From: Candidatus Saccharimonadota bacterium
GTDB lineage: Bacteria; Patescibacteriota; Saccharimonadia; Saccharimonadales; UBA4665
Length of the DNA stretch: 32,000 nucleotides
Reading direction: 5' to 3'
Assembly (NCBI GenBank): GCA_003516025.1
Contig: CP023991.1
Span: forward strand, 420,001-452,000
Part shown: positions 8,948-27,178 of the stretch, piece after piece
Position numbering within the stretch: position 1 is the stretch's first letter
Layout: every line of letters starts with the position of its first letter
The notes under the pieces: model-generated
Databases searched by the model: none
What the model was told of the DNA's origin: nothing
What the model saw: the letters and a program-made list of their open reading frames with translations, nothing else
Translations under genes and position numbers: made by a program

Positions 8948-8959
8948 AGGAGATTACCT

Positions 8960-9187: not shown

Positions 9188-9216
9188 AAAAAAGGCTTCC
9201 TCATGAAGCCTTTTTT
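9188..9216. terminator. bidirectional intrinsic terminator
   Basis: AAAAAAGGCTTC-ctcat-GAAGCCTTTTTT lies between convergent genes. A 12-bp stem is possible, and the A/T runs inside the arms supply a U-tract on either strand. Confidence 0.8.
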
Positions 9217-9217
9217 A

Positions 9218-11548: not shown

Positions 11549-11622
11549 AAGTATAAGGGAAGGCTAGAAAAAAGAGTAAAACAGCGGCTATATTACAATG
11601 CCTATGCCGCTTGGCTTGAGAA

Positions 11623-12237
11623 ATGGCTGATGTGTTGCTACTATTTCTGCTTATGGATTATAAAACCGCGCTCGGTGGCCTGAGTTCCCTCTTGGTAATA
11701 ATCAGTTACCTGCCGTATCTAGTGCATGTTTTTCAAGGAAAAACGAAACCTCATGTATATTCATGGCTGGTCTGGGCCGTTTTAGGAGGGATTGGTTTTG
11801 GCATCCAGATGCAGGGAAACGCCGGGGCGGGTTCCTGGGCTCTAGGCGCGACCGCTCTCGTATGTATGGCCATATTCATGCTAGCGGTTATTCGTGGCGA
11901 AAAACACGTACATTATGTTGATACATTTAGTTTGGTGCTGGCCTCAGGCTCCTTAGCAGTGTGGCTAACCAGCCACAAGCCGCTGGTCACTGCTATAGCA
12001 ATAACATTGACTGACGCACTGGGAGGATTCTTTCCGACGTTCCGCAAATCCTACTACGCTCCATATAGTGAGACGGCGAGCACCTATCTGATAAACGCGT
12101 TGGCGTTTACTATTTCACTATTCGCGTTGACCGACTTTAGTGCCAGCAACCTGTTGTATCCAGCGTCGCTTATCGTACTGAACGGCGGGTTGAGCTTTTA
12201 TTTGGTAGTGAGACGTACGTATGTGCGGAAGACATAG
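11623..12237 (+). CDS. polytopic membrane protein of unknown function
   Basis: 204 aa with about six hydrophobic helices. The start is uncertain; an internal ATG lies at 11653. Confidence 0.6.
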   Translation: MADVLLLFLLMDYKTALGGLSSLLVIISYLPYLVHVFQGKTKPHVYSWLVWAVLGGIGFGIQMQGNAGAGSWALGATALVCMAIFMLAVIRGEKHVHYVDTFSLVLASGSLAVWLTSHKPLVTAIAITLTDALGGFFPTFRKSYYAPYSETASTYLINALAFTISLFALTDFSASNLLYPASLIVLNGGLSFYLVVRRTYVRKT

Positions 12238-12261
12238 GAGTTTGGCGGTTTGTTATATGGT

Positions 12262-12288
12262 GGCGTATCGTGGACGTACTTCGCAGTT
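12262..12288 (-). repeat. copy 3 (diverged) of the roughly 30-nt intergenic repeat family
   Basis: ATCGTGGACGTACTTCGCAGTT matches the repeat core at 19 of 22 positions. It starts 1 nt after the CofE-like stop codon. Confidence 0.6.
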
Positions 12289-12289
12289 T

Positions 12290-13021
12290 TTATAACGTCG
12301 CATCCGTAAGTGACGCCTTCTCATCGAGTTCAAATTCATGCCCGCGAATAATGGCGGCGGGAATATTATTTCCACGCTGTCCCATCACCAGTCCTGCCGC
12401 GGCGGCCAACATGTCGCAAATCGTTTCTTCGTTACTCTGTTGATCTCGGAGCGGCTGCATGCCACTCAGGCCTATACATAATTGCGTAGCACCACCAATG
12501 TCTTCACGGCCATCACTATCGGTGATTAGTATTGCTACGTCTATATTTGCCGAGTTTTTGATATTTATACGAATCTTTTTTGCGCTGGCGTTAGGATCAC
12601 GAGGCAATAAAAGCACGGTGTTGTCATCAACTGTATCAATGCCGGCACTGGTAAGCTTGCGGCCTGTTTTAGTCTTCACGCCTATCCAATTGCCGTGAAT
12701 ATCAATATTTTTTAAATCATAATCGCACTCTTGCAGTATTAACTCTAATATGGTGGGTTTTTTTCGAGGAATTTTTGCATGGAGTTCGTAGGCCTGCTTT
12801 GAGGGGACGACAGTGTTAAGTTCAACGAACCTGTTTTCCGAAATAGTTACAATTTTCGACGCGACGCAAATTATATCTCCCTGACGCAGTTCCAATCCGG
12901 TTTTATGGAGGCACGTAAGAAGAGCATCAGCTAGGTTATCTGCTGGCTGGATTGCCGGCATGTGGTGAATCCCCATGATGGTGATAGGCTTTTGCATATC
13001 GTTATGATACCAAACGCACAT
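12290..13021 (-). CDS. CofE-like (F420-0:gamma-glutamyl ligase family) protein
   Basis: 243 aa with an N-terminal PAIQPADNLADALL segment and an ILITDSDGR motif typical of the family. The true start may be ATG 12997. Confidence 0.7.
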   Translation of the reverse strand: MCVWYHNDMQKPITIMGIHHMPAIQPADNLADALLTCLHKTGLELRQGDIICVASKIVTISENRFVELNTVVPSKQAYELHAKIPRKKPTILELILQECDYDLKNIDIHGNWIGVKTKTGRKLTSAGIDTVDDNTVLLLPRDPNASAKKIRINIKNSANIDVAILITDSDGREDIGGATQLCIGLSGMQPLRDQQSNEETICDMLAAAAGLVMGQRGNNIPAAIIRGHEFELDEKASLTDATL

Positions 13022-13135
13022 AAAACTTTTTGGCGGAACTGCGCACGACGAGCGTGTGAGATAATAAGTTTACGGACAAACTCACCGTCATTTAATACGA
13101 CACGTGAGGGCCTAAAGTAACATGAAAGGTTATGT

Positions 13136-13702
13136 ATGGGAAAAGTAATGGCTGGCATGACCGTATCATTGGATGGCTCCATAAATGACCGTAACGGGAG
13201 CGCCGCAAGCCTCAGCCCGGACTTTGATGAACTTCTTGAATCTCCTTCTTTTAAGGAAATGACCAAAAACACCGGGGCCGTCATTATGGGCAGGCATACG
13301 TATGAGATGGCAGATCCGTTCTCGTGGATAAACGATGACTATGAATTCCAAGTTCCTATCTTTGTGCTTACCCATACGCCGCCCGAGCAGTATCCGAAGG
13401 GAAACGACAAACTTACGCTCACGTTCGTGACCGATGGAATTGAAAGCGCTATTGCTCAAGCGAAAAAGGCAGCCGGCGACAAGATGGTTCAGATAATAGG
13501 CGGGGCAGACACGATACAACAATGCCTGAATTCGGGTTTGTGCGATGAACTGGAGATAGATGTCATGCCCGTGCTCCTCGGCAACGGACTGCGACTATTT
13601 GAAAATATAGATACGGACAAAATAAAGCTTGAAAGAATCAGCGTGGAAGAAACTACGGGTATGAGGACGAGCGCTACGTTTAGAGTTACCAAATATCTAT
13701 AG
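13136..13702 (+). CDS. dihydrofolate-reductase-like protein (RibD C-terminal domain family)
   Basis: 188 aa with an N-terminal MTVSLDGSI segment, VIMGRHTYE and IIGGADTIQQ blocks. Confidence 0.75.
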   Translation: MGKVMAGMTVSLDGSINDRNGSAASLSPDFDELLESPSFKEMTKNTGAVIMGRHTYEMADPFSWINDDYEFQVPIFVLTHTPPEQYPKGNDKLTLTFVTDGIESAIAQAKKAAGDKMVQIIGGADTIQQCLNSGLCDELEIDVMPVLLGNGLRLFENIDTDKIKLERISVEETTGMRTSATFRVTKYL

Positions 13703-13969
13703 TTTTGCAAACCGAGGTACCGTTTCGCCTTCCCACTCAACCATGGCAATCCATGAGTTAAACGGCCGGATATATGTAAGGCGCTCTTCATAGTCGGCTT
13801 TATAAATGACGCACAGCTGATTATCTTCTTCTTGAAATGCCAAGTCTTGTACAGTGTATATTTTATGCGTCGCCTTATAGTGCCTGTATTTTGCGCCAAT
13901 CTCTACTTGCGTGAGAGCATGTTCTAGTTCTACTTTAAGCTGAATCTGCTCTTCAAGTGTTTTGCCCAT
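13697..13969 (-). CDS. DUF1653-family protein
   Basis: 90 aa. KYRHYKATHKIYTV...VIYKADY...IRPFNSW...VPRF fits the DUF1653 pattern. TGtTATAAT lies 6 nt from the ATG. Confidence 0.75.
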   Translation of the reverse strand: MGKTLEEQIQLKVELEHALTQVEIGAKYRHYKATHKIYTVQDLAFQEEDNQLCVIYKADYEERLTYIRPFNSWIAMVEWEGETVPRFAKL

Positions 13970-14030
13970 ACAAAAATTATAACAATAAAACGAGCCACTG
14001 ATGTGACCCTGGGGGTGATTAGTTTTTTCT

Positions 14031-14060
14031 GGCTGGTTATAGTTGACGTGCTTCTCGACA
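14031..14060 (-). repeat. copy 4 (diverged) of the roughly 30-nt intergenic repeat family
   Basis: GGCTGGTTATAGTTGACGTGCTTCTCGACA matches the identical copies at 22 of 30 positions without gaps. It begins 18 nt after the PNPOx-like stop. Confidence 0.5.
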
Positions 14061-14078
14061 TATCAGTTTGGAGGTCTG

Positions 14079-14543
14079 CTAAATATCTACAGTAATTCGA
14101 TAGTCTTTTATGAAGTCGCCATCAGTGTCTTGATGGGCGTCATTAAGCCAAGCCTTGATGGGGGTAGCCTTATAAATTCTTTGCTGGCCTCCTGGCAGGA
14201 ACTTTTCAATGTGCAAGAATGGCTTACCTCGTCTTGCTCCCAGCAGGTCAAGGGCAAATTCAATCTCATCGTTAGACTTAAGTTCGCTGGCAGATGCTTG
14301 TACGTATAAACCTACGCCTTCACCTTCAGTAGCTTTTGAGTTGTATATAACAATAAATGCTTTATGGCTTGCGGTGATATTTTTTGAGTGCTCAGATCCC
14401 GGATGCGAAGACCAGTAGATATTATTATCTTGGTCAGCCACGCAGAATACCGGCGTATTCCACGGATTGCCGTCAATGTCAGACGTTGCAATAGTAGCGT
14501 ACTGAATACTGTCTAGAATTTGCAGCGCCACTTTATTCGTCAT
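14079..14543 (-). CDS. pyridoxamine 5'-phosphate oxidase-family (split-barrel flavin/deazaflavin-binding) protein
   Basis: 154 aa. ATIATSDIDGNPWNTPVF...IYWSS fits the PNPOx-like N-terminal pattern. TGaTATAGT lies 6 nt from the ATG. Confidence 0.75.
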   Translation of the reverse strand: MTNKVALQILDSIQYATIATSDIDGNPWNTPVFCVADQDNNIYWSSHPGSEHSKNITASHKAFIVIYNSKATEGEGVGLYVQASASELKSNDEIEFALDLLGARRGKPFLHIEKFLPGGQQRIYKATPIKAWLNDAHQDTDGDFIKDYRITVDI

Positions 14544-14560
14544 GCGTTAACTATATCAAA

Positions 14561-14589
14561 TAAAAAGATCTCTAACGTGAAGAGATCTT
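14561..14589 (-). terminator. intrinsic terminator after lepB
   Basis: The minus strand reads AAGATCTCT-tcacgtt-AGAGATCTT followed by TTTTTATTT. Confidence 0.65.
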
Positions 14590-14604
14590 ATATTACTTAT
14601 GCTT

Positions 14605-14634
14605 GGCTGTCCATCGTTGACGTACTTCGCAACT
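14605..14634 (-). repeat. copy 1 of the 30-nt repeat (GGCTGTCCATCGTTGACGTACTTCGCAACT on the plus strand)
   Basis: Identical at 30 of 30 positions to 15240-15269. It lies in the 3' UTR position of lepB, upstream of the terminator. Confidence 0.8.
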
Positions 14635-14666
14635 TTGATGATTTAAAGAAGTGGTCCGGTTAAGCT

Positions 14667-15179
14667 CTAAGGCTCAACCTTGCCGACAATACTTTCTGCC
14701 GTAATAGGTCCAAATACTCGAGAATCCAATGAAACGCTTCTGTTGTCTCCGAGGACGAAATATTGGTTCGCAGGAATAGTAATATCAATTTTTCCGCTAG
14801 TGTCGATTTGTTGTTTTAGGTAAAGTGCATCAGGATTAAAGTCTCGCGAAAACTGACTATTGTATATAGTAACTTTCCCGTTAGATATGGTAACTCTTTC
14901 ATTGGGTAGCCCTACAACGCGTTTTATGAGTTGTTTGGTTTGGTTTTGTCCTTTTTCTGAAAAGACAACTATATCTCCTCGAGCAGGATTGGCCCCACCT
15001 TTATAGGGTTCTGCTTTTACTGTTTGTCCAGAATTAAGTGTCGGACTCATTGCGGGTCCGTCTACTGCATATAGGCTTCTGTGATAATGCACCAGAGCTA
15101 CCAATGCAATGGCGACCGCTACTAATAGGATGGCTATAATTATGAGAATAACTGTTATCTTTTTTACATTTCTTTTCAT
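14667..15179 (-). CDS. lepB: signal peptidase I
   Basis: 170 aa with an N-terminal TM anchor, the Ser box GPAMSPTL, RGDIVVF, the Lys box KRVVGLPNE and VLGDNRSVSLDSR. TGcTATAAT lies 6 nt from the ATG. Confidence 0.9.
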   Translation of the reverse strand: MKRNVKKITVILIIIAILLVAVAIALVALVHYHRSLYAVDGPAMSPTLNSGQTVKAEPYKGGANPARGDIVVFSEKGQNQTKQLIKRVVGLPNERVTISNGKVTIYNSQFSRDFNPDALYLKQQIDTSGKIDITIPANQYFVLGDNRSVSLDSRVFGPITAESIVGKVEP

Positions 15180-15196
15180 AACGGGATTATAGCATA

Positions 15197-15222
15197 TAAA
15201 AAGACCTCAAAATCTGAGGCCT
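15197..15222 (-). terminator. intrinsic terminator-like hairpin upstream of the lepB promoter
   Basis: The minus strand reads AGGCCTCA-gattt-TGAGGTCT followed by TTTT. Confidence 0.6.
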
Positions 15223-15239
15223 ATAAGCATAAGCTTTAT

Positions 15240-15269
15240 GGCTGTCCATCGTTGACGTACTTCGCAACT
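15240..15269 (-). repeat. copy 2 of the 30-nt repeat
   Basis: Identical to 14605-14634. It abuts the left edge of the AT-rich island. Confidence 0.8.
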
Positions 15270-15384
15270 ACGAGCAAATACAAAATTTGGCGAAATGATA
15301 ACATAATGTACTAAGATGTTAATGTCGGACAATTAGCAATTAAGTAAGTTATGTAGGTTATGAGACATCTTATCTGGATAATAA

Positions 15385-15406
15385 TGTCACTAGTGACAGG
15401 TATGAT
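15385..15406 (+). promoter_or_regulatory. perfect 14-bp palindrome TGTCACTAGTGACA followed 2 nt later by TATGAT; candidate operator overlapping a promoter
   Basis: Palindrome at 15385-15398 and -10-like TATGAT at 15401-15406, about 60 nt upstream of the ATG at 15465. Confidence 0.45.
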
Positions 15407-15464
15407 AGTAATTTTAATCGGAGGCACCCACCCATCATTGCCTCATTTGAATAGAGGATTCGAT

Positions 15465-16229
15465 ATGTCTGATGAAATTACGGCAGGAATAATCGGCGCC
15501 GGAGCTGGATTAGTCGGTGCTTTAATTGGGGCATATGCCGGTTATAGGTTTAATGAGAAGCTTGAAGCAACGCGTACTAAGGAACGCCGTCAAGTACAAA
15601 CAAAAAACACTATTTTCTCGCCAATTTATAAACAGCTCACAGGACTGAAAGCATTTTTAGATAATCGGCAAAATCCCTTAGCCCCTAATATTTCAGTTCA
15701 TTTCGCAAACGACAGATACCATGGCGGACTTAGCTATACCTTCGACATATGGGAGAGTATGAAGCGGGACATACGTAAATTATATATTCCAGTAAGTAAG
15801 CGTGAAGAACTAGATAAATTAACAAAAGTTATAGTGGATCATATGAATCTTCAGCAAGTTGTCCAAGCGTCCATTATTCAAATTGCTGTATCGTTTGCAG
15901 CGGAACATAGAGATCGTTTAAAAACGCCTTCTAGTTGGAATCCGCGGTTTATGGGAAACGCGTTGGATGTTTACTCGTCCGGCATCGCTTACCCTCGCAT
16001 TAAAGACGATATTAAAGAACACTTAAATTCTGGGTTCAACTTTAGCCCGGAAGAACAAGATCAGTTTGCTACCGAGCTACTGAAGAGAGTGGATGAACAT
16101 GAAAATCAAAAGCGTCTTATTAATAGCTTCAATCATGTCATGTCAACAATAGTACTAGTAACAGAATCATTTGAAACACTAGTCAGCGAGATAATTACTA
16201 AATACGAAGGAGGTGTTGATGTTAAATGA
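15465..16229 (+). CDS. hypothetical membrane-anchored protein (glycine-zipper-like N-terminal TM helix)
   Basis: 254 aa from ATG 15465, with AGAGGA SD 6 nt upstream. The track start at 15360 has no SD. TM segment GIIGAGAGLVGALIGAYAGY. The rest is soluble with no motif I recognise. Confidence 0.6.
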   Translation: MSDEITAGIIGAGAGLVGALIGAYAGYRFNEKLEATRTKERRQVQTKNTIFSPIYKQLTGLKAFLDNRQNPLAPNISVHFANDRYHGGLSYTFDIWESMKRDIRKLYIPVSKREELDKLTKVIVDHMNLQQVVQASIIQIAVSFAAEHRDRLKTPSSWNPRFMGNALDVYSSGIAYPRIKDDIKEHLNSGFNFSPEEQDQFATELLKRVDEHENQKRLINSFNHVMSTIVLVTESFETLVSEIITKYEGGVDVK

Positions 16230-16440
16230 TATAGGCCTGAGTAAAGCCGAGATTCGAAGAGAAATACAAAAACATTTAGATGAAAATGCTGACTTAGTAA
16301 TTGGAATAGATGACCCTGAAATGGTGCAGCTTATCGAAGTATTATGCGACGGATTTTCTGAAGCAATTTCCGCTAACAATAAAAAAATTGCGGATGATTT
16401 AAAACGTAACGACCGAGATATGGCTATGCGTCTTCGATAA
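16219..16440 (+). CDS. hypothetical small acidic protein, translationally coupled to the upstream gene
   Basis: 73 aa from ATG 16219. GAAGGAGG SD lies 5 nt upstream, inside the 3' end of the previous ORF, and the two ORFs overlap by 11 nt. Confidence 0.55.
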   Translation: MLNDIGLSKAEIRREIQKHLDENADLVIGIDDPEMVQLIEVLCDGFSEAISANNKKIADDLKRNDRDMAMRLR

Positions 16441-16447
16441 GTAGGCG

Positions 16448-17323
16448 TTACTTTGCTTTACCAATTTTGTTCATTAGTAGCTCATTCTTTTTACGCGATA
16501 TCCAGTAAACGAAATCAAAAATCAAAGGGGCTGTGATACGGTGACTATATATTGCATCTTGCAGTGCGCGTATGTCGGCCATATCAACTTGTTGTGTTTC
16601 GCTTGCGGCAAGAAGGGATTTTGATCTATTCAAATTAGCTTCTGCATTTTTTATTGCTTGGAAATTCTTATAACATTCAACAATCATGGTTTGAAATGCG
16701 GGAATCATCGGAACTATGATAACCAAAATGAATTCTTTTAGTTTTAAATCTCGCATATTTCCGACGTAAATTAAAACAAAGAATATTACAATTACTAAAG
16801 CTGTTGTTGTGATTGTGTATTTCGTTCTAAGACTGCCATCCCACCACGAATTTATTCTTTGAGCCGTAATGATTGCTTTGCTTTGTTCCCATCGAGGGCT
16901 AATCGTATACCAGTTTTTTAATCGAGGATCTTTATTTTTCTTCAGGAAAGTTTTTTTATTGAGTAATTTGTCTGCCCACTCTTCGATCACTTCTTTAATG
17001 TCAGGTTTATTAACGATGATTACATTCAAGGGTATCTCTAGAACGTGATGATCGAATAACTCCTGAATAGAGGCAGCAGTTTTTATATAGTTTTTTATAA
17101 TCAAATACAGTGCGGCATTAATGGCAATTACAGCGATACCCAAGATAGCTATGTGTGATGCAAACTGTGGTTTGAATATCGTAGCAAAACTAAAGACAGG
17201 GACTACAATAATATTAAGCAGAAGGGTTAATGCCCAGTATTTTTTTGCATGTGAGTAAATCGCTCTTTGGGCGGCAAGAAGTCGGATTGCTTTCTTCTCA
17301 TTCTGTTTTTTGATGCTGTTCAT
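16448..17323 (-). CDS. four-TM effector, S-4TM-like (SMODS-associated) CBASS effector candidate
   Basis: 291 aa with two TM hairpins (YWALTLLLNIIVVPVFSFATIF and IAILGIAVIAINAALYLII, then ALVIVIFFVLIYVG and FILVIIVPMIPAFQTMIV) separated by a soluble insert. It lies 1 nt downstream of the nucleotidyltransferase gene. Confidence 0.7.
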   Translation of the reverse strand: MNSIKKQNEKKAIRLLAAQRAIYSHAKKYWALTLLLNIIVVPVFSFATIFKPQFASHIAILGIAVIAINAALYLIIKNYIKTAASIQELFDHHVLEIPLNVIIVNKPDIKEVIEEWADKLLNKKTFLKKNKDPRLKNWYTISPRWEQSKAIITAQRINSWWDGSLRTKYTITTTALVIVIFFVLIYVGNMRDLKLKEFILVIIVPMIPAFQTMIVECYKNFQAIKNAEANLNRSKSLLAASETQQVDMADIRALQDAIYSHRITAPLIFDFVYWISRKKNELLMNKIGKAK

Positions 17324-17324
17324 A

Positions 17325-18233
17325 TCAATAGTTGTAATTAGGAAATTTATTATTAAACAGTAAATTTAACCAGTAGAACGCATCCTTAAAGTTACCACCT
17401 ATTGTAGCATTCATCGCTTTTTCACTTCTCACCATTGCCGTATGTATCTTGCTAAGTGCCGCTGTTTTCTTATATTCAGAATTGCATGCTGCGATATAGC
17501 CAACTATTCCTGTGGGATCTTGTAACTGCGCAAGATTTATAGAGTATAGATCTTTGAAATAATAATGTAGATGTACGACATAGCTTGCGACAGTGCCTTT
17601 TTTGAAATACGTCTCCGCATATTTAGCGGCTCTCATTTCTAAATAGAATGACGATATATCTACGACATTATAGTATTTCCATGCTTTGATGAATCTTATG
17701 AATGTTTTTACCTCGTAATTGTATGTGGTGTTAACCTCTGTTACGTAAGCATTATGAGCTTTTGGGGCTGTCTTAATCCATCCTCCGTTACCATCGGCGA
17801 TTCCATAGACGGGTATGCCGCTCTTCGTAAATTCTATTAAGTAACCGGGAACTACCTCGTTAGTCTCGACGCCGTATAAGCCAAATGGCACAACAACAGC
17901 AGGCGTACTAACGTGGACATTTGATTTAGGAAAGGTGTAATTCAGCTGATCTCTGACTTTAGTAAGCATTGTGGTTGAATTTGAAGTAAGCTGTTTTTCG
18001 GGTATCAATGCCATGTAATCAATATCACTGTAGTAGATGATGTCTGTTGAGTTGCCAGACGAGCCGCTCTGAAAAAAATAGTTAATTGTATAAATTTTTT
18101 CAAGGCTTGCAAGAACACTAGCTCTATGACCCTTGGCAGCATCCCTGGCTGTACTATTGGGTTTCAACGAGGTATGAAATTGGTCAAAAGCTACTTGTAG
18201 AGTACGTGGCATGTCCTTAACCCTTTTAACCAT
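17325..18233 (-). CDS. SMODS/CD-NTase-like nucleotidyltransferase (CBASS cyclase candidate)
   Basis: 302 aa with the pol-beta NTase signature G57-S58, 11 residues, then D70-I-D72 (QSGSSGNSTDIIYYSDIDYM). A candidate third acidic residue sits in the NEVVPG strand (E126). The alternative start is ATG 18212, because the ATG at 18233 overlaps a TGcTACAAT box. Confidence 0.8.
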   Translation of the reverse strand: MVKRVKDMPRTLQVAFDQFHTSLKPNSTARDAAKGHRASVLASLEKIYTINYFFQSGSSGNSTDIIYYSDIDYMALIPEKQLTSNSTTMLTKVRDQLNYTFPKSNVHVSTPAVVVPFGLYGVETNEVVPGYLIEFTKSGIPVYGIADGNGGWIKTAPKAHNAYVTEVNTTYNYEVKTFIRFIKAWKYYNVVDISSFYLEMRAAKYAETYFKKGTVASYVVHLHYYFKDLYSINLAQLQDPTGIVGYIAACNSEYKKTAALSKIHTAMVRSEKAMNATIGGNFKDAFYWLNLLFNNKFPNYNY

Positions 18234-18614
18234 TGTAGCACTAATGCTTAATAAAATAGCAATACTGACAAACTAAGTATTTGTCTTATGTTAATTTCTG
18301 CATTATAGTGTCTGGTAGCCTTCGAGATAATTCCATGACAATCCTGCAAGAGAAAGCTAAAGCGGCACAATTCCGCAAAAACCTCGCAGATCGCTGCGTT
18401 GTAATGAACAAGCCAGTCTGACGCGTATCCCGAAGATACAAACATAAGTAGATATGCCGTACGCAAGTCGAGGCCCTACTTAGTCAGATAGAACCTTTGA
18501 TTGCGAAACAGGTACTGCCACTCGCGACAAAGCTCAATCACCGTTTTTAGGTGTGCTCTATAAAGAGCGAGTTTTGTTGTGTCCTAGTACCGCAATATAA
18601 GAATCGATATTTAT

Positions 18615-18640
18615 AACCACCCAGAAATGGGTGGTTTTTT
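18615..18640 (+). terminator. strong intrinsic terminator with no annotated upstream plus-strand gene
   Basis: AACCACCCA-gaaa-TGGGTGGTT followed by TTTT. Confidence 0.6.
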
Positions 18641-18667
18641 AATACATAAAAATAGGAGGGATTTTAT

Positions 18668-18808
18668 ATGACGAAAAATCCAAAGCAGTTAGAACTTAAG
18701 TTCAACGTGAAGACCCGCAGCGATGGTGCTAGGAGCCGTGCGCCGCACCGGCGGGGCGGGCGTCCTGTATTACTTGATATACAGGACATAAATAGGGTCA
18801 TTTCATGA
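18668..18808 (+). CDS. small basic ORF (46 aa) coupled to rep by an ATGA overlap
   Basis: AGGAGGG SD lies 7 nt upstream. The product is MTKNPKQLELKFNVKTRSDGARSRAPHRRGGRPVLLDIQDINRVIS. The ORF is below the track size cut-off, and coding status is uncertain because the region also carries the origin-like hairpin. Confidence 0.4.
   Translation: MTKNPKQLELKFNVKTRSDGARSRAPHRRGGRPVLLDIQDINRVIS
18762..18787 (+). promoter_or_regulatory. candidate rolling-circle double-strand origin: 9-bp stem presenting TACTTGAT in the loop (CTTG/ATA nick-site consensus)
   Basis: GTCCTGTAT-tacttgat-ATACAGGAC. ACTTGATAT matches the nick region I recall for phiX174 and the CTTGATA core of pC194-class origins. It lies 18 nt upstream of the rep ATG. 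Confidence 0.6.
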
Positions 18809-19674
18809 ATAATGATCTCAACAAAATCGAGTCAATATTTGGAAAAATTAAAAAAATAGATGCCAGCTACGAGGTACGTGCCAGTGCGAAGTACTACCCT
18901 CATCATACAAAAGTATTTATTCCGAATGTTCCATACAGAAAAATGATTCCGTTCATGGAGCAACGCATTGATGATCTTGACGACATTGTAGAGGACTGGG
19001 ATACGAGGGTTATTGCTGATTCAAAAACATCAACTGAGGACAATTTGGAGCGGTCAATCCGCAGAACGAAAACACTTATTTCCGATTACGTTCTTTGTAA
19101 CGATTTTGATATATTCGCTACCTTTACCTTTTCCCCTAAGAAAACAGCCGATCGTACTGACACCCGTACCGTTAAACGCCAAATGAGTAACTGGATAAAA
19201 AACCAAAAAGCACGTAACAGCAATTTTGCATATTTGATTGTTCCAGAATTCCATAAAGACGGTAAGTCTTTGCATTTTCATGCACTTATCCATGACTATC
19301 CAGGCGAGCTCATCGATTCAGGCAATCGAATAAATGGCAGAAAATCGTACAACTTTAAAAGTTATACCCTCGGTATCAATAGCGCGGTAAAGATAGACGA
19401 CCGCCATAAAGTATCGAACTATGTTAAGAAATACATAACAAAAGACATGCCCCAGTTTCCCGGCAAGCACCGCTTTTGGTCTTCCACTGGCTTAGAGCGG
19501 CCACGGGTAGAGGATAACCCAAGTGAGTGGTACCTACAAGCAAAGCCACAGCGGGTATATGAAAATGAGTACGGGTGTACGCTCTACTTCATTACCGACT
19601 CGTCGCAAGCCACTGAGTCTCATAGTCTCACTGAAGGCAGCACTCCGCCATCGCTCTCGGAGAAAGACGCCTAG
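18805..19674 (+). CDS. HUH rolling-circle replication initiator (two-tyrosine, phiX174 gpA / Microviridae-like motif 3)
   Basis: 289 aa with motif 1 FATFTFSP, motif 2 SLHFHALIH (H157-F-H159) and motif 3 NYVKKYITK (Y206 and Y210). Confidence 0.85.
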   Translation: MNNDLNKIESIFGKIKKIDASYEVRASAKYYPHHTKVFIPNVPYRKMIPFMEQRIDDLDDIVEDWDTRVIADSKTSTEDNLERSIRRTKTLISDYVLCNDFDIFATFTFSPKKTADRTDTRTVKRQMSNWIKNQKARNSNFAYLIVPEFHKDGKSLHFHALIHDYPGELIDSGNRINGRKSYNFKSYTLGINSAVKIDDRHKVSNYVKKYITKDMPQFPGKHRFWSSTGLERPRVEDNPSEWYLQAKPQRVYENEYGCTLYFITDSSQATESHSLTEGSTPPSLSEKDA

Positions 19675-19675
19675 T

Positions 19676-19771
19676 ATGGCTTTGTCTTCCACTGACTTAG
19701 ATGCGTGGAAGGCTTACTTCAAGCTGCTTGCAGAACTCGACAAGAAACAGAATAAGAAGGACGCTAAATGA
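19676..19771 (+). CDS. possible 31-aa ORF between rep and the recombinase gene
   Basis: The ATG lies 1 nt after the rep stop. The product is MALSSTDLDAWKAYFKLLAELDKKQNKKDAK. There is no SD and the call is very tentative. Confidence 0.25.
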   Translation: MALSSTDLDAWKAYFKLLAELDKKQNKKDAK

Positions 19772-19811
19772 GCTATAATGTATATAAATTAAATCGGCGG
19801 TAACGGTGGGA

Positions 19812-21335
19812 ATGCATGCTTTTCTCATCGCTCGCGTATCGACTGCTGATCAGGTGGAAGCCTTGCCGGCTCAAGTCTATAAATTAACCGACTATGCTAA
19901 AAGTCAGGGTTACGATTTTGAGTTGTTCGAGTTTCATGAAAGCGCTTACAAAGGCACTCGAGAAAAGTTCCGCGAAGTCATAGCTACCATACAGGCGTCG
20001 ACCGAAAAAGTAGTCGTTGTCTTTGATAAAGTCGACCGTTTCACTCGTGATTCAAGCGCAGAAGAAACAAATATTTTCAAAAAGCTGTATCAGTCAGGAA
20101 AGATCGAGCTACATTTTCCATCTGAAAACCTGATACTACACGAAGGTTCACCGTCTACCGACAGAATGCGCCTCGGACTGAATACGATATTTGCAGAGTA
20201 TTACTCCGACGCTATAAGTGATAATGTAAAGCGCCGCAACTATCAGCTATGGAGAGACGGCTATTGGACCGGACCCGCACCGTTCGGATATGTAAATATA
20301 TCAAAACCAGATGGCAGTAAATGGATAGATAAAGTACCCGTTGAAGCATTAGCAGTGAAATTAGCCTATGAGTTATATGCCACTGGAAGCTACTCGCTCC
20401 GGCTTGTTCGCATGCAAGTTATAAAGCAATACGGTATTTCTCGTTCAATTGGCCAATGGGATAAGGTGCTCAAGAATCCGTTCTATGCAGGACAAATGAG
20501 AATCAAAGGCAAGCTGTACAAACACAACTATGAACAGCTCATTAACTCGTCATTATTCGATCAAGTTAAAGCCGTGCGGGAAGGTCATGCGATACAACCA
20601 AAAAGGTGGGCTGGCTTGCCGTATCCATATCGTGGACTTATTACGTGTGCTGACTGCGGTTGTAAGGTGACTTTCGAGATAAAGAAAGGCAAGTATGTAT
20701 ATGGTCACTGTACGCAGTTCAGAGGTAAGCACGATGCAGCGTATGTTAATGAAAAGTTAATGACAAAACAGCTTAGATCAGTATTCTGGCAGATACAAAT
20801 ACCGGAAGATGCTTATGAAGAAGTATCAAAAGCATTACTGGCTGATGATGAACAATCAAACCGACAAAACAGTGAAAAGCTAGAGCATATTAACGCCGAA
20901 ATCAAACGCTATGAATCGAAAATTGAACGTAATTACGATATGTATTTAGACGGCGGCATAAGCAAAGAAACCTATCAAAAGAAGCATGACGAATTGACAT
21001 TAATTAAGGCCTCACTCGAAAGCACTAGAAAAAATATCGAACTTATGGCGAACAATAATTATGACGGTGCATTACATCTGTTAGAGCTATCTCGTAAAGC
21101 GCCTGATTTATTTGAGACTGCTGAAATTGAAGAACGCCGTACGCTCATCAATATGGTACTTTCGAACTTGGAGCTAGACGACAAAGAACTTTGGTGGAAA
21201 CTAAAAGAACCATACGATTGTATGGTTCTTTGTAATGAAAACGCAAATTGGCTGGGGATGAGGGATTCGAACCCCCGAATGCTGGTACCAGAAACCAGTG
21301 CCTTACCACTTGGCGAATCCCCAATATATATGTAA
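19812..21335 (+). CDS. large serine recombinase (integrase)
   Basis: N-terminal resolvase domain with the catalytic-Ser context AFLIARVSTADQ, a recombinase domain, a zinc ribbon (CADCGCKVTFEIKKGKYVYGHC) and a C-terminal coiled coil. The last 28 codons read antisense through tRNA-Gln and beyond. The track start is GTG 19806. Confidence 0.9.
   Translation: MHAFLIARVSTADQVEALPAQVYKLTDYAKSQGYDFELFEFHESAYKGTREKFREVIATIQASTEKVVVVFDKVDRFTRDSSAEETNIFKKLYQSGKIELHFPSENLILHEGSPSTDRMRLGLNTIFAEYYSDAISDNVKRRNYQLWRDGYWTGPAPFGYVNISKPDGSKWIDKVPVEALAVKLAYELYATGSYSLRLVRMQVIKQYGISRSIGQWDKVLKNPFYAGQMRIKGKLYKHNYEQLINSSLFDQVKAVREGHAIQPKRWAGLPYPYRGLITCADCGCKVTFEIKKGKYVYGHCTQFRGKHDAAYVNEKLMTKQLRSVFWQIQIPEDAYEEVSKALLADDEQSNRQNSEKLEHINAEIKRYESKIERNYDMYLDGGISKETYQKKHDELTLIKASLESTRKNIELMANNNYDGALHLLELSRKAPDLFETAEIEERRTLINMVLSNLELDDKELWWKLKEPYDCMVLCNENANWLGMRDSNPRMLVPETSALPLGESPIYM
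21249..21323 (-). tRNA. tRNA-Gln (anticodon CUG), CCA encoded
   Basis: The reverse complement folds as a cloverleaf. Acceptor stem UGGGGAU/AUCCCCA, anticodon arm CUGGU-UUCUGGU-ACCAG, T arm GGGGG-UUCGAAU-CCCUC, discriminator G plus CCA. Length 75 nt. Confidence 0.95.
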
Positions 21336-21417: not shown

Positions 21418-21588
21418 AAGAATATACAGAGTGCGGCAAGAGAACTAGCTCTACGACCCGCCAGCAACCTGCCAGTGTGCCTATCGGTATGCAAGCAAGG
21501 TGCTCCATCTAGCCCAGGCTTCAGCGCTGGAAAGATATTTATTTGTCACGATATCCTTTCAGCGCTTTTGCCAAGAAAGGATATTTTT
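21418..21588 (+). promoter_or_regulatory. SAM-I-clan riboswitch candidate with terminator / SD-sequestering expression platform upstream of metK
   Basis: P1 GAATAT (21420-21425) pairs with ATATTT (21535-21540). J1/2 AGAG at 21428-21431, GCAACC at 21464-21469, GGTGC at 21499-21503, and a GAAAGATAT 3' strand. A P2 loop CTAG could pair with CTAG at 21509-21512. Downstream hairpin GATATCCTTTC (21550-21560) / GAAAGGATAT (21575-21584) is followed by TTTT and ATG, and its right arm contains the SD. Confidence 0.65.
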
Positions 21589-22903: not shown

Positions 22904-24442
22904 CTAGACAGTGTCCAGGGTGTTCTTTCGTGTGGTCTCCAACCGCACCTCGCTCTCTTTGAGGATGTCGTGGCCGTGCTCGGTCTTGTGCCAGGTGTAG
23001 CGGGTCTTGCGACGAGCGAGCTCGAAGAGGACCCGGTACGCCGACCAGCTGGTGAAGATCCACCAGAAGGGTGCGAGCAGCATGTACTTGACGCTGCCGT
23101 AGCCCTCACGGTCGAGACATGCCGTAACCAGCTGCAGGAAGAGCAGCAGGTTGCCGACCAGGAGCAGTGCCACGCCAGTGTAGAACACCGGAGTGGGGAA
23201 CAACTGCTCGATGGCCTGCGAACCATCGGTGTAGCCCGCGACGCGAGTCACGAAGTACGCGATGGTCAGACCCCAGTAGATCGGGTTGAGCATCAGGCTG
23301 AAGGGCGTACCCAGCATCAGCAGGTTGAAGCAGAACCACTTGACGGGTCCCATCTGCCGAGCCGTACGTACCGGCTGCCTGGTGTAGACCAGACCGGTCT
23401 GCAGGTAGCCCTTCAGCCAGCGGCGTCGCTGCCCATCGGCCACGCGGACACGGGAAGTTGCCTCCTCGTAGGTCACCGAGTCGATGATCTTGATGTCGTA
23501 GCCGTACATGGCGAGGGCGCCAGCCAGCTCCGCATCCTCGGTGACGTTGTACGAGTCCCATCCGTAGGCGGCATCGGTGCCACCGGGGAGTGCCGGGAAC
23601 TCGCTCTGCGGGAAGGCGATCTTGCGGAGCACCTCCGTGCGGAAGTGGTTCGAAGTTCCTCCCAGCGGCGGTACCAGGTTGAGCTTGGCCAGCCCCGCCA
23701 GGTTGTACACGAAGTGCACCACGTACTCCGCCCAGTAGAACCGGGTGACCCACGAGGTGTCTTCGTTCCAGAACTGCAGCCGGGCCTGCACGCAGGCGAC
23801 GGTGCCTTTCTGGTCCTTGCGGAACTCGGCCACTGCCTTGAGCAGCTGGTCCGGGTCCGGACGGTCCTCGGCGTCGTAGATGACACTGAAGACGCCGGTG
23901 GCACGGGCCAGGCCGATGTTGAGCGCGCGCGGCTTGCCCTTGGGCTGGTTCATGCGCGCCTGGCCCTGGGGGATGCCCGGTGCGACGATGATCTCGAAGT
24001 TGTCCGGCAGGTCCATGATCTGGGCCTCCAGGAGGGTCTCGGTGTCATCTTCCTCGAGCAGCAACAGCACCTGCAGCCTGTGCTTGGGGTACTGGAGCTG
24101 GCTGAGGTTGTACACCAGCGCCGGCAGGATCTGGGCCTCCCTGTAGAGGGGAACCAGGGCGGTGTAGGTCGGCAGATCCGGGTCGTTGATGCTCAGCGGC
24201 GGCGTTGCCGGTGAAGATCCGCGGACCTGGAGTGATGCCACGAACAGCACGGCCTTCAGCAGCATGATGCAGCCGTAGAAGGTCAAGCTGATGTCGACGA
24301 GCACTTGCAGCGTGCCGGTGGTGAAGAGCACCAGGCCGACCAGGACTGCGAACAGGCCCAGTGCGAGGGTGATCTTCTGGCCGGTGCTCAGGAACACCCG
24401 GGCTGAACGCCGCGGCAGTGCCTTGTTGCGATGACCGCTCAC
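22904..24442 (-). CDS. membrane-embedded processive family-2 glycosyltransferase (cellulose/chitin/hyaluronan-synthase-like)
   Basis: Motifs VIYDAEDRPDPDQL, VTEDAELA and QRRRWLKG (the D, D, D, QxxRW signature), flanked by TM helices. The start is reassigned to GTG 24442, which forms a GTGA overlap with the upstream stop and has GAGGAG SD upstream. Confidence 0.85.
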   Translation of the reverse strand: MSGHRNKALPRRSARVFLSTGQKITLALGLFAVLVGLVLFTTGTLQVLVDISLTFYGCIMLLKAVLFVASLQVRGSSPATPPLSINDPDLPTYTALVPLYREAQILPALVYNLSQLQYPKHRLQVLLLLEEDDTETLLEAQIMDLPDNFEIIVAPGIPQGQARMNQPKGKPRALNIGLARATGVFSVIYDAEDRPDPDQLLKAVAEFRKDQKGTVACVQARLQFWNEDTSWVTRFYWAEYVVHFVYNLAGLAKLNLVPPLGGTSNHFRTEVLRKIAFPQSEFPALPGGTDAAYGWDSYNVTEDAELAGALAMYGYDIKIIDSVTYEEATSRVRVADGQRRRWLKGYLQTGLVYTRQPVRTARQMGPVKWFCFNLLMLGTPFSLMLNPIYWGLTIAYFVTRVAGYTDGSQAIEQLFPTPVFYTGVALLLVGNLLLFLQLVTACLDREGYGSVKYMLLAPFWWIFTSWSAYRVLFELARRKTRYTWHKTEHGHDILKESEVRLETTRKNTLDTV

Positions 24443-26780: not shown

Positions 26781-27178
26781 TAGACACCCCTTTCTGGTTG
26801 GAAGACCACGTGGTGGTTGATCAGGAAGGTGCAGACAGTGCTGAGCAGCGTCGCGAAAATTGCCGCGACTAGACTTGGGAGAGCACAGACGTTGTGCGCC
26901 AAGCCAAACAGTAGGCTGTTGATGCCGAGCGCCAGTGTGGCGTTGAAGGCAAACTTGAGCCATGTCAGCAACAGATACCCACCAGTACGCCGCGCAGAGT
27001 CACCCCAGGTAAAGGTGTAACTGAGCACGAAGTTCAACTGAGCGGATATCATGAAACCAATGCCGTTCGCATAGAGCGCGGGCATGTAGTGTTCCAGCAG
27101 GTGCAGTAGTAATAACTGGACGAGGAAACACAGCAACCCAACTCCAACGAACTTTATCTGTCGGCTCATGTATTCCAA
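26780..27178 (-). CDS. GtrA-family small membrane protein (polyprenyl-phosphate sugar flippase-like)
   Basis: About 130 aa with four TM helices and FVGVGLLCFLVQLLLLHLL at the N-terminus. 27178 is a TTG, so ATG 27169 is the likelier start. Confidence 0.75.
   Translation of the reverse strand: MEYMSRQIKFVGVGLLCFLVQLLLLHLLEHYMPALYANGIGFMISAQLNFVLSYTFTWGDSARRTGGYLLLTWLKFAFNATLALGINSLLFGLAHNVCALPSLVAAIFATLLSTVCTFLINHHVVFQPERGV

Follow-up and report, generated by a model that had tools for sequence, protein, structure and literature searches.

In the 32,000-nt stretch of DNA analysed here (the window), a minus-strand tRNA-Gln(CTG) gene (21249-21323; ARAGORN; Rfam tRNA, 59.1 bits) adjoins a large serine recombinase (LSR), a rolling-circle replication initiator (Rep), a structured region with an origin-like hairpin, and two cargo modules. 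A first-pass annotation of the window had claimed this gene content, including the motifs of a two-tyrosine HUH Rep, and searches with Pfam and PADLOC together with comparison of homologues bear it out. The host is probably Saccharibacteria/Patescibacteria-like, judging from a metK that matches a Saccharibacteria MAG at 64% and from two source names among the Rep homologues.

Rep (18805-19674, plus strand) is a two-tyrosine HUH initiator of the REP_ORF2-G2P family (PF23343, 48.9 bits against a cut-off of 27.8), and its motifs FATFTF, HFHAL and YxxKY are invariant across 30 homologues. It had been described as phiX174/Microviridae-like, an assignment that we reject: the profile search returns only PF23343, a family of inovirus/plectrovirus type, and no other Pfam family, hence no microvirus Rep family, matches at E <= 0.01. 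The Reps nearest to it initiate replication in inoviruses and in 1.4-kb plasmids with no other gene; both inoviruses and 1.4-kb Staphylococcus plasmids are run by Reps of the PF23343 type.

The structured non-coding region (18380-18804, plus strand) that precedes Rep is marked by conserved blocks (A5) and by its fold as single-stranded DNA, which none of 100 shuffled sequences equals (z = -6.76). It contains a terminator-like hairpin (18615-18636), a GC-rich palindromic block (18730-18761) and a candidate plus-strand origin and Rep nick site at 18762-18787 (plus strand), a hairpin with a 9-bp stem (GTCCTGTAT/ATACAGGAC) and the loop TACTTGAT. The origin-like hairpin proposed earlier is real: all 31 Rep-LSR loci with enough upstream sequence have a hairpin with an ACT[T/C]GA-containing loop near the called Rep start (in most, at a distance of 17-62 nt upstream), and the stems vary among loci yet remain complementary. 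The loop also occurs in 27 of 94 Zot-carrying relatives, including those with the most similar Reps. Nucleotide similarity to the region as a whole is confined to LSR-carrying contigs and one 1-kb Rep-only fragment, with no match in any Zot contig. The hairpin and the Rep start (ATGA) are both overlapped by orf46 (18668-18808, plus strand), a small basic ORF whose Shine-Dalgarno site is strong and whose status as a real gene is uncertain; relatives have small ORFs of 51-77 aa at this position, and in P0023 and P0024 the hairpin-encoded PVLLDIQD forms an N-terminal extension of Rep.

The LSR (19806-21335, plus strand, with an ATG start possible at 19812) matches Pfam Resolvase (2.9e-17) and Recombinase (5.7e-07), as well as the PHROG 95 integrase over residues 2-461 (1.6e-57), while its Zn_ribbon_recom match of 23.0 bits falls slightly below the Pfam cut-off of 25.3. 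It has 617 homologues at E <= 1e-10. In the family, LSR sequence clusters track the target tRNA. The gene ends, counting its stop codon, in 87 nt (21249-21335) that consist of antisense tRNA-Gln and 12 nt of host DNA; the reading frame spans the attachment core, as it does in 24 of 24 relatives having a tRNA. A micro-ORF between Rep and the LSR (19676-19771, plus strand) encodes an acidic amphipathic peptide of 31 aa (MALSSTDLDAWKAYFKLLAELDKKQNKKDAK) that is conserved in relatives: of 36 Rep-LSR loci examined, 35 have an ORF of 25-46 aa that begins close to or at the stop codon of Rep and shows a conserved hydrophobic pattern (in one locus it was read from a longer ORF). The micro-ORF still adjoins the LSR in L232, a locus that has lost Rep and retains the origin hairpin. 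The element encodes no recognised recombination directionality factor, and our guess is that the micro-ORF is a candidate for that role or for an LSR partner.

One cargo module, on the minus strand, consists of an oligonucleotide cyclase (SMODS/CD-NTase, 17325-18233; Pfam PF18144, 6.9e-11; PADLOC cyclase, 1.5e-100) and an effector of the S-4TM family (16448-17323; Pfam PF18159, 5.5e-63; PADLOC 4TM effector, 3.7e-61), which together are a type I CBASS anti-phage pair. No known family could be assigned to the other module. Its larger gene, orf289 (15360-16229, plus strand; NCBI calls a 254-aa form from 15465), encodes a predicted membrane-anchored helical protein with no Pfam, PADLOC or PHROG match, and its AlphaFold2 model (pLDDT 74.7) has no fold match in the PDB. 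Only 3 relatives were found among 5.8 billion clusters, and full HMMER gave 64 cluster representatives. Its small partner ORF is orf75 (16213-16440, plus strand). Virion, conjugation and mobilisation genes are absent from the element. Defence families are found in 10 relatives (ThsB, SoFic, OLD, NERD, PDC-M48, PDC-M50, a restriction endonuclease and others), and the cargo of relatives is mostly defence genes.

The composition of the element is foreign relative to the backbone. The first-pass annotation noted a sharp fall in G+C, and the figures agree (0.399 for 15239-21248 against 0.493 for the backbone at 1-12257), as does the tetranucleotide distance to the backbone, 0.35-0.44 within the segment and 0.14-0.18 outside it. 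The extent proposed at that stage needs correction on both sides: the segment itself holds up, but the drop starts at about 12.3 kb (G+C of 0.437 for 12258-15238), the left end lies at 15239-15269, just before the 15270 that had been given, and the right end is the tRNA 3' terminus (21249-21254) and not 21335. A switch in translation signals was likewise partly right. Backbone genes are leaderless, with TATAAT adjoining the ATG, and strong Shine-Dalgarno sites do occur in the element, but only at orf46 (AGGAGGG), the internal start of orf289 (AGAGGA) and orf75 (GGAG); the cyclase, the S-4TM effector and the LSR have none.

The ends of the element can be read from its attachment sites. On the left, attL (15239-15269, plus strand) joins the core TGGCTG, common to the tRNA 3' end, to an element-side P' half-site (TGGCTGTCCATCGTTGACGTACTTCGCAACT). 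On the right, attR (21219-21254, plus strand) joins the P half-site in the LSR 3' coding end (...TTCTTTGTAATGAAAACGCAAAT), an arm conserved in relatives, to the same core, and the element ends at the tRNA 3' terminus (21249-21254). The tRNA-Gln gene is left intact because the core equals this terminus, CCA included. Positions 15239-21254 are a genuine mobile element, AT-rich, 6.0 kb long and integrated at the 3' tip of tRNA-Gln(CTG). The same attL, with its P' motif, lies at the distal end of six elements of the window's subfamily (L230, L202, L220, L179, L229 and L232). In the window attL is an exact 31-nt repeat (chance expectation 0), present at 14604 and at 15239. The left boundary is ambiguous, and lepB might travel with the element, because of this second attL at 14604 and because a JGI contig of identical sequence begins at 14596. 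The attP junction of the window copy (...AACGCAAAT-TGGCTG-TCCATCGTTGACG...) was not found in IMG/VR.

Beyond the left end lies an older part of the island (12258-15238), made up of three units that have neither Rep nor LSR and that each open with an attL-like site (12258, 14030 and 14604). They carry an F420-ligase-like gene, RibD_C, DUF1653, PNPOx and lepB. These sites show the 9 kb nearest the tRNA to be a tandem island, with lepB inside it; pairs of attL-like sites are present in L179, L229 and L211 as well. An empty site with tRNA-Gln directly adjoining lepB, as had been predicted, is therefore unlikely, since lepB itself sits within an older unit bounded by attL-like sites.

The Rep-LSR-tRNA module was found again in about 40 loci. 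Of 145 related Rep loci, Zot is encoded in 94 and an LSR in 42, and never the two together. A neighbour-joining tree of 128 Reps groups those linked to an LSR into two clades, one of 39 and one of 3, and in it an LSR-linked Rep is never paired with a Zot-linked one as nearest neighbour. In the 42 Zot-less loci the ORFs of Rep and LSR are open as far as the contig covers them, and in 24 relatives the 3' end of the LSR directly adjoins a tRNA gene on the minus strand (Gln, Asn or Trp). One relative, L209, is a closed circle (a 5907-bp unit, by a 127-bp terminal overlap) with no tRNA, an intact LSR and an attP in which an analogous P' motif lies 3' of the core; this attP motif recurs in L214, which is circularly permuted. 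L209 and its integrated relative L208 match as far as TGGCTGGGGAT, which is the final 11 nt of the tRNA, and differ thereafter; circular attP and integrated attR cease to be identical within these 11 nt. A P'-motif attL lies 4.6-8.3 kb from attR in L171, L180, L192, L195 and L211, and attL/attR pairs could be defined in eight integrated elements, that of the window included. The tRNA-Gln-SAM riboswitch-metK locus is occupied by a divergent family member in a related genome (L157) and is free of any element in a more distant one (L003).

These comparisons indicate a widespread family of small (4.6-8.3 kb) integrative replicons in Saccharibacteria/Patescibacteria-like bacteria, with a backbone of about 3 kb: an origin region with its hairpin, an inovirus-type Rep, a micro-protein of about 30 aa, and an LSR containing attP in its 3' coding end. 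The first-pass proposal of a small capsid-less element, integrated next to a tRNA by an LSR and carrying a rolling-circle Rep, gains support from the roughly 40 recurrent loci, the circular L209 with its attP, the eight attL/attR pairs, the occupied L157 and the empty L003. We are confident that the window carries an integrated copy of such a replicon, with exchangeable cargo, LSR integration and inferred rolling-circle replication.

From sequence comparison, the LSR would join attP to the tRNA gene within its final 6-11 nt, and the gene would survive because the shared core reproduces its 3' end; the final LSR codons would come from the tRNA when the element is integrated and from the P' arm when it is circular. 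Excision would restore the circle, as seen for relatives, and we infer that the window copy is capable of both reactions. Rep would then start rolling-circle replication of the excised circle by nicking the loop of the hairpin (AACTTGAT), a step to which the invariant Rep motifs, the conserved loop and complementary stems, the fold of the region, the plasmids and inoviruses of the Rep family, and L232 all point. The island may have grown as the regenerated site was reused and older insertions were pushed outward, leaving the attL-bounded units at 12258-15238. Candidate routes between cells are packaging by an inovirus helper and natural transformation.

The transfer step would be refined if the element were a filamentous-phage satellite, bringing its own Rep, origin and integrase and having its ssDNA packaged by the coat and Zot of a co-resident inovirus. 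RS1 relies in this way on CTXphi for leaving the cell as packaged DNA. Such a life cycle is not opposed to that of an integrative replicon, and we regard it as a possibility of some weight, though on balance an unlikely one. The Rep and the hairpin loop are common to Zot-carrying inoviruses with the most similar Reps, the multi-hairpin non-coding region of about 420 nt 5' of Rep recalls the filamentous-phage intergenic region, and an inovirus contig with Rep and Zot (L196) comes from metagenome Ga0066648, as does L001, a contig identical to the element. L232 has no Rep yet retains the origin, a sign that replication may be possible in trans. However, no packaging signal was identified in the element, and outside the hairpin no Zot-carrying contig resembles its intergenic region at the nucleotide level. 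LSRs are found in 0 of 65 IMG/VR viral contigs with a related Rep, in a database that selects for viral hallmark genes, and the LSR-linked Reps form their own clade and do not track particular helper phages.

The inovirus-like Rep family and origin hairpin, the absence of structural genes from the segment (Pfam, PHROG) and the resemblance of the neighbouring units at 12258-15238 to decayed insertions would also fit an inovirus prophage that lost its structural and assembly genes, gained CBASS and is now an inert remnant. We consider this very improbable: random decay is not expected to yield the same architecture repeatedly, and 42 independent loci have an identical Zot-less layout with Rep and LSR open where covered. 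No locus has both LSR and Zot, the LSR-linked Reps group apart in a clade of their own, circular relatives exist, and the Rep and LSR catalytic motifs are intact in the window copy. Only slightly less remote, in our view, is an integrative and mobilisable element (IME) whose HUH protein would act mainly as a relaxase and whose hairpin would be an oriT, with transfer by conjugative or type IV secretion machinery whose genes lie elsewhere. HUH Reps and relaxases work by similar mechanisms, some streptococcal IMEs use Rep-related relaxases and IMEs can have serine recombinases (PMC5704250), and the element has no transfer genes of its own. Against this, the nearest Rep relatives are initiators of inoviruses and single-gene 1.4-kb plasmids, conjugation genes are absent from the window, and the cargo census contains neither a coupling protein nor mobilisation accessory genes.

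We found no published description of a Rep-LSR family with defence cargo; the design itself, an integrase with a replication module, has precedents. Actinomycete integrative and conjugative elements (AICEs) of the pSAM2 type combine an integrase with a rolling-circle Rep. Like the present family, these elements (int, xis, repSA, traSA; PMC3218068) are small, integrate site-specifically at tRNA 3' ends and have a Rep of the kind that amplifies the excised circle, but their Rep family and integrase lineage are different, they have an FtsK-like Tra gene, and their hosts are Actinomycetota rather than Patescibacteria; attP within the integrase ORF also sets our family apart. Tycheposons of Prochlorococcus, which pair an integrase with a replication module (Hackl et al., 10.1101/2020.12.28.424599), resemble it in their small integration and replication modules, exchangeable cargo, streamlined genomes, tRNA targets, and tandem insertions and remnants that build tRNA-adjoining islands, and a few use a large serine recombinase. 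They are defined, however, by a lineage-specific tyrosine recombinase with primase, helicase or polymerase replication genes and leave partial tRNA copies, whereas our family uses an HUH Rep, is smaller and has its crossover within the last 6-11 nt of the tRNA.

Inoviruses (Tubulavirales), including those reported from Candidate Phyla Radiation hosts (Roux et al. 2019, PMC6813254), share with the family the PF23343 Rep and an origin hairpin directly upstream of rep with the loop ACTTGAT; they are of similar size (4-8 kb), and some integrate via tyrosine or serine recombinases. Unlike them, the family has no Zot/pI ATPase and no recognisable coat genes, LSR and Zot being mutually exclusive across the 145 loci, and defence cargo fills the space; elements of this kind would escape the pI-based detection of that study. 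Pipolins (PMC11551731) and Vibrio PLEs (PMC7145576) are likewise integrative self-replicating platforms holding defence reservoirs, and PLE encodes a replication initiator of its own alongside a large serine recombinase. Pipolins differ in their primer-independent PolB and tyrosine recombinases and PLE in its RepA_N-type initiator, its size of about 18 kb and its status as a tailed-phage satellite, and we found no sequence relationship of the element to either. Small cryptic rolling-circle plasmids of Staphylococcus (1.4 kb; e.g. NC_013451) lack both integrase and cargo; the catalytic domain of their Rep is 36-39% identical, so a Rep of this family can maintain a plasmid alone.

The 6.0-kb insert that ends at the 3' end of tRNA-Gln(CTG) is very probably a site-specifically integrated member of a family of elements that pair a two-tyrosine HUH rolling-circle initiator (Rep) with a large serine recombinase (LSR). 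The first-pass annotation had proposed an AT-rich segment of foreign composition here, and the segment does stand apart: G+C is 0.399 at 15239-21248 and 0.437 at 12258-15238 against 0.49 in the backbone, and the low-G+C stretch lies at a tetranucleotide distance of 0.35-0.44 from the backbone versus 0.14-0.18 elsewhere. To the left of the element's ORFs is lepB (14667-15179, minus strand), and to the right is the tRNA (21249-21323, minus strand), the single one in the window. The element encodes orf289 and orf75, which lie between lepB and the tRNA and match no family, a pair of CBASS genes, a small basic ORF (orf46), a 289-aa Rep and a 509-aa LSR. A proposed switch in translation signals holds in part: backbone genes are leaderless, with a TATAAT box adjoining the ATG, but Shine-Dalgarno sites precede only three element ORFs. 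Beyond the tRNA, a probable SAM riboswitch (21419-21541, plus strand; Rfam RF00162, 41 bits against a gathering score of 44.4, E 1.1e-06) lies upstream of metK, and because it precedes that gene we place the metK start at 21589 and treat a 446-aa ORF from 21391 as an artefact. Riboswitch and metK are the host's own. The closest metK relatives come from a Candidatus Saccharibacteria MAG (64%) and a Patescibacteria MAG (59%), and on this similarity the host, whose source contig spans 1,005,782 bp, is Saccharibacteria-like.

The recombinase and Rep assignments of the first-pass annotation both survive profile searches. The LSR has an N-terminal resolvase catalytic domain (PF00239, 2.9e-17), a Recombinase domain (5.7e-07; 30.2 bits against a cut-off of 21.1) and a match to the PHROG 95 integrase across residues 2-461 (1.6e-57), with Zn_ribbon_recom at 23.0 bits falling under its cut-off of 25.3. 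Its translation contains ARVSTADQ and DKVDRFTRD, and so the catalytic serine and the D-R-x-x-R motif. At E <= 1e-10 there are 617 homologues, on contigs of 1.5 kb to 1.19 Mb; no PDB sequence matches at E <= 0.001, and the solved structures offer no usable relative of either LSR or Rep. NCBI calls a 507-aa form (P0121), and no database record was found for the GTG-started translation. The LSR frame runs antisense through the entire tRNA to a stop at 21335. This arrangement recurs: a minus-strand tRNA (Gln-CTG, Gln-TTG, Asn-GTT or Trp-CCA) sits at the end of the LSR gene in the 24 Rep-LSR relatives that extend far enough, and every one of them, like the window, has an LSR ORF that shares 12 nt or more with the 3' end of the tRNA. 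LSR clusters match the target, with one holding every tRNA-Asn element, three the tRNA-Trp elements and the rest the tRNA-Gln elements.

The ends of the element can be read from relatives caught in different states. Contig L209 closes on itself: its ends overlap by 127 bp, which leaves a circular unit of 5907 bp with an intact LSR and no tRNA. A relative, L208, sits integrated at tRNA-Gln. L209 and L208 are identical up to and including ...TTCTTCT-TGGCTGGGGAT, where the final 11 nt are the 3'-terminal nucleotides of the tRNA, CCA among them; beyond this 11-nt core, L209 continues into the P' half-site and L208 into the tRNA body. Another contig, L214, is circularly permuted (LSR, cargo, Rep) and carries the L209-type attP motif inside the LSR 3' end. 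At the far end, five relatives (L171, L180, L192, L195 and L211) share the attL sequence TGGCTGGGG[A/C]TAGTGGATG[C/T]GTT[T/C]CAGGAA, 4601-8258 bp from attR. The P' arm of the window's subfamily differs, being the 31-nt TGGCTGTCCATCGTTGACGTACTTCGCAACT at 15239-15269, of which the window holds two exact copies where none is expected by chance. Close variants occur near position 108 of L230, whose attR is at tRNA-Gln at 5480, whose LSR is 69% identical and which also has a SMODS gene, and at the far ends of L229 (LSR 77% identical), L232, L220, L202 (tRNA-Asn) and L179. TGGCTG (TGGCTC at tRNA-Asn) is the only sequence common to attL and attR in this subfamily, so the crossover must fall within the tRNA's discriminator-CCA end. 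The predicted attP and attB are short and share little beyond this small core, as is characteristic of LSRs. These sites set the span at 15239-21254, leaving the tRNA intact, and agree with the proposed integrative element of about 6 kb adjoining tRNA-Gln; at the far end there is no partial tRNA copy or repeat of at least 14 nt, the shared core being 6 nt.

Excision of the window copy would join GTAATGAAAACGCAAAT through TGGCTG to TCCATCGTTGACGTACTTCGC, an attP junction with no exact match in IMG/VR. Reading the sequence of the re-formed circle, the LSR would end in ...NWL-SIVDVLRNYEQIQNLAK instead of ...NWL-GMRDSNPRMLVPETSALPLGESPIYM, and the vacated attB would bring TGGCTGGGGATGAGGG next to the sequence that flanks 15239, 14604, 14030 or 12258 on the left. 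The empty site that had been predicted, with tRNA-Gln beside lepB, was not found among the metK relatives retrieved, which are at most 64% identical and show no left-side synteny. The tRNA-Gln-riboswitch-metK locus is free of any element in the more distant L003 and in L157 holds a divergent member with about 50% identical Rep and LSR and different cargo. In L229 (5130-5356), high-G+C sequence unlike the remainder follows the att core and a truncated stretch resembling a tRNA (TGGCTGGGGATAAGGGATTCGAAC); either a chimeric assembly or an atypical insertion site could explain the switch. In L195, a 77-nt partial tmRNA match at 5020-5096 (plus strand; 38.6 bits against a gathering score of 47, with no ARAGORN call) sits just inside the element beside attL at 4888, and may be a tRNA-like fragment; Rfam gave no match within the elements other than tRNA.

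Three further attL-like sites, at 12258, 14030 and 14604, split the region left of the element (12258-15238) into units without Rep or LSR; the one at 14604 is identical to the site at 15239. The units hold an F420-0:gamma-glutamyl ligase-like gene with RibD_C and DUF1653, a PNPOx-like gene, and lepB (signal peptidase), all with host-style leaderless promoters; the ligase-like, RibD_C and PNPOx-like genes are flavin/deazaflavin-type functions. L229 likewise has single genes enclosed by a pair of these sites, and L179 and L211 have two sites each. The simplest reading is that new copies repeatedly inserted at the regenerated tRNA end and that the older backbones were then lost, a process described for tycheposon islands (10.1101/2020.12.28.424599). 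Because the 31-nt site is duplicated, excision might use 14604 rather than 15239, giving a 6.65-kb circle that includes lepB. A JGI contig of the same sequence covers 14596-21325, and a Logan contig breaks at 15240, presumably as expected from a 31-mer repeat if Logan assembles with k = 31.

Rep matches PF23343 (REP_ORF2-G2P) at 48.9 bits against a Pfam gathering threshold of 27.8, matches the PHROG 'rolling circle DNA replication initiation', and has 403 homologues. FATFTF, HFHAL and Y206-x-x-K-Y210 are invariant in a 30-sequence alignment, with residues F101, T106 and T108 (motif I, FxTxT), H157 and H159 (motif II, HxH) and Y206, K209 and Y210 (motif III, YxxxY) conserved throughout. All three motifs of the proposed two-tyrosine HUH Rep are thus confirmed, and as judged from sequence Rep belongs to this class and to the family REP_ORF2-G2P. 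Its description as 'phiX174/Microviridae-like' did not hold up. No Pfam family other than PF23343 matches Rep at E <= 0.01, and a Zot-like assembly ATPase of filamentous phages is encoded on all but one of 65 IMG/VR contigs (4.3-17 kb) with a related Rep, the exception beginning inside rep. Many of the 65 also carry a tyrosine integrase and none carries an LSR or a microvirus capsid gene, ruling out a microvirus origin. Relatives in GenBank come from uncultured inovirus-like viruses, Ralstonia phages, which we take to be inoviruses, and 1.4-kb cryptic Staphylococcus plasmids; four records titled 'Microviridae sp.' are weak matches at below 60% identity. Given the linkage to Zot and these inovirus-like and plasmid relatives, the label should be 'inovirus/plectrovirus-like'.

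Across 145 loci with a related Rep from IMG/VR and metagenomes, with LSR called by HMM and Zot by phmmer, 94 carry Zot, 42 carry an LSR, none carries both and nine carry neither, seven of these nine being contigs shorter than 2 kb. A neighbour-joining tree of 128 Reps places those linked to an LSR in one clade of 39 and one of three, and no nearest-neighbour pair mixes the LSR and Zot types. Neither the element nor any of the 42 Rep-LSR loci yields a Zot match by Pfam, PHROG or phmmer, and the hallmarks of an inovirus prophage (Zot/pI ATPase, small coat proteins) are not found in the element, in keeping with its earlier description as lacking capsid genes. The separation of Zot from LSR together with the Rep tree leads us to reject a decayed prophage, and by these sequence comparisons the Rep-LSR elements are a stable lineage, not a collection of such remnants. 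On two 5-6 kb contigs without a tRNA (L152 and L223), the serine recombinase that comes after Rep is more divergent (Resolvase about 1e-11), and L152 additionally encodes DUF6602 and a SMODS-like nucleotidyltransferase; these contigs may represent a sister subfamily in its episomal form. A 3.5-kb locus (L232, 3729-7344) has attL, cargo, origin hairpin, micro-ORF, LSR and tRNA-Gln(TTG) with rep cleanly deleted, and may be a non-autonomous derivative replicated in trans.

The origin-like hairpin noted at first pass lies at 18762-18787 (stem GTCCTGTAT/ATACAGGAC, loop TACTTGAT), and its conservation upholds that call. A hairpin whose loop contains ACT[T/C]GA is found near the called Rep start in all 31 Rep-LSR loci with upstream sequence, in most of them 17-62 nt upstream. 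The stems vary yet stay complementary (CCTGT/ACAGG, CCTAT/ATAGG, GCCAT/ATGGC, GCCTC/GAGGC, TCCCA/TGGGA), as measured in each sequence separately, the ungapped alignment (A4) misregistering the 5' arms. Of the 94 relatives with Zot, 27 share this loop, including those with the most similar Reps. We infer that the hairpin is the plus-strand origin, nicked in its loop, with AACTTGATA as the candidate Rep nicking sequence, and it is fairly likely that the excised circle replicates by a rolling-circle mechanism driven by Rep. As single-stranded DNA, the 336 nt preceding rep fold strongly (z = -6.76), and subfamily-conserved blocks at 18380-18810 include a terminator-like hairpin (18615-18636); the other upstream hairpins may serve a minus-strand origin or packaging. 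One 10-kb Zot-carrying contig (L222) has three copies of the origin hairpin (177, 4338 and 8512), about 4.1-4.2 kb apart, which suggests a tandem or concatemeric inovirus genome.

In 35 of 36 Rep-LSR loci examined, a 25-46-aa ORF begins at the Rep stop codon or close to it (in one via a longer ORF), L202 being the only locus where none was found. In the window it occupies 19676-19771 (MALSSTDLDAWKAYFKLLAELDKKQNKKDAK). A 24-sequence alignment has a mean column identity of 31%, keeps an amphipathic pattern and contains only three end gaps, in two sequences. L232, having lost rep, retains this micro-ORF with the origin hairpin and LSR. That its product works with the recombinase, for example as a directionality factor, is speculative, and we think it improbable that it controls the direction of recombination. 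A separate stretch, ...FLLLMGGCARK..(S/G)(M/I)SDLG(C/S)H(N/D)RPFLVG..., is kept in one frame immediately upstream of the LSR start in several subfamilies (L154, L171, L180, L184, L192-L195, L204, L208-L211). It is absent from the window, has no Rfam match, and may encode a small protein or mark a conserved element of DNA or RNA.

As had been proposed, the window copy carries two cargo modules, the CBASS pair and orf289/orf75, a pair of no known family. The CBASS genes are adjacent and co-oriented, encoding a SMODS cyclase (PADLOC 1.5e-100) and an S-4TM effector (PADLOC 3.7e-61, Pfam 5.5e-63); a CD-NTase/SMODS gene beside an effector and without ubiquitin-like accessory genes is, on sequence criteria, a type I system. 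A census of 45 proteins between attL and rep in 10 relatives returned ThsB-TIR, SoFic, OLD (AAA_15 + TOPRIM), NERD, DUF2726, PDC-M48A/B and PDC-M50A/B, as well as the DpnII restriction endonuclease, SocA/Panacea, HNH, SNase and others. These matches to defence families indicate that the Rep-LSR family largely carries defence systems.

An integrase, a dedicated replication initiator and cargo at a tRNA also characterize pSAM2-type AICEs, tycheposons, pipolins and PLEs. AICEs are defined by an FtsK-like Tra for double-stranded DNA conjugation, whereas no FtsK/Tra domain occurs in the element or in the 45-protein cargo census. Tycheposons have a lineage-specific tyrosine recombinase, primase/helicase hallmark genes and partial tRNA repeats; here the integrase is a serine recombinase, replication is by an HUH Rep and no partial tRNA copy of at least 14 nt is present, which excludes membership. 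What is distinctive is an LSR clade targeting tRNA 3' termini with attP within the LSR ORF, a virion-less replication module of filamentous-phage type, a conserved micro-ORF, and defence cargo in ultra-small genomes. In the literature, of which our coverage is incomplete, we found no account of a Zot-less element at tRNA 3' ends in Patescibacteria with an inovirus-type Rep and a serine integrase.

The element could be a filamentous-phage satellite (RS1-like) whose transfer depends on an inovirus helper. The evidence is circumstantial: Rep and the origin loop are shared with Zot-carrying inoviruses, and one JGI metagenome (Ga0066648 / 3300004213) contains both a contig identical to the element (L001) and an inovirus with Zot and a 42%-identical Rep (L196), a possible co-resident helper. 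We regard satellite dependence as doubtful. A broader reading seems still less likely to us. It would make the family a distinct, ancient lineage of capsid-less inovirus relatives and a major vehicle of anti-phage defence genes in Patescibacteria, spreading as filamentous-phage satellites. Integration would swap the recombinase's C-terminal tail, attP being inside its gene, the ~30-aa micro-protein would be a minimal directionality factor, and the recombinase would also install Rep-less or cargo-only units in trans, giving integron-like cassette arrays at tRNA 3' ends. Examples of such installation would be L232 and, in the window and L229, the single-gene units flanked by attL-like sites.

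Patescibacteria (Candidate Phyla Radiation) have tiny genomes, and the Rep-LSR family would offer them a compact, recurrent route to gain and exchange other genes as well as defence systems such as CBASS, Thoeris-like TIR proteins, OLD nucleases and restriction enzymes. Most known targets of large serine recombinases are protein-coding genes; this clade is unusual in combining an extreme tRNA 3'-end target, specificity for Gln, Asn or Trp that tracks lineage, and an attP in its own frame. The family also connects filamentous-phage replication modules with capsid-less integrative replicons. Genetic tools for Saccharibacteria seem to be scarce, and the 3-kb origin, Rep and integrase backbone with defined att sites could be a starting point for replicating or integrating vectors, as well as a source of new serine integrases. 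A study of oral and environmental TM7 genomes remarked that evidence tying the group to phages had so far been scant, and it detected no prophages in its three environmental genomes (PMC7739484).

Elsewhere in the window, a 4.1-kb block at 22904-26963, between metK and mgsA, stands out by its G+C (0.63; backbone 0.49) and its tetranucleotide distance (0.49-0.52), and encodes GT2-family and PMT_2 glycosyltransferases. In L003, ~3.3 kb of unrelated genes separates metK from mgsA. The block looks like a second, independent foreign island.
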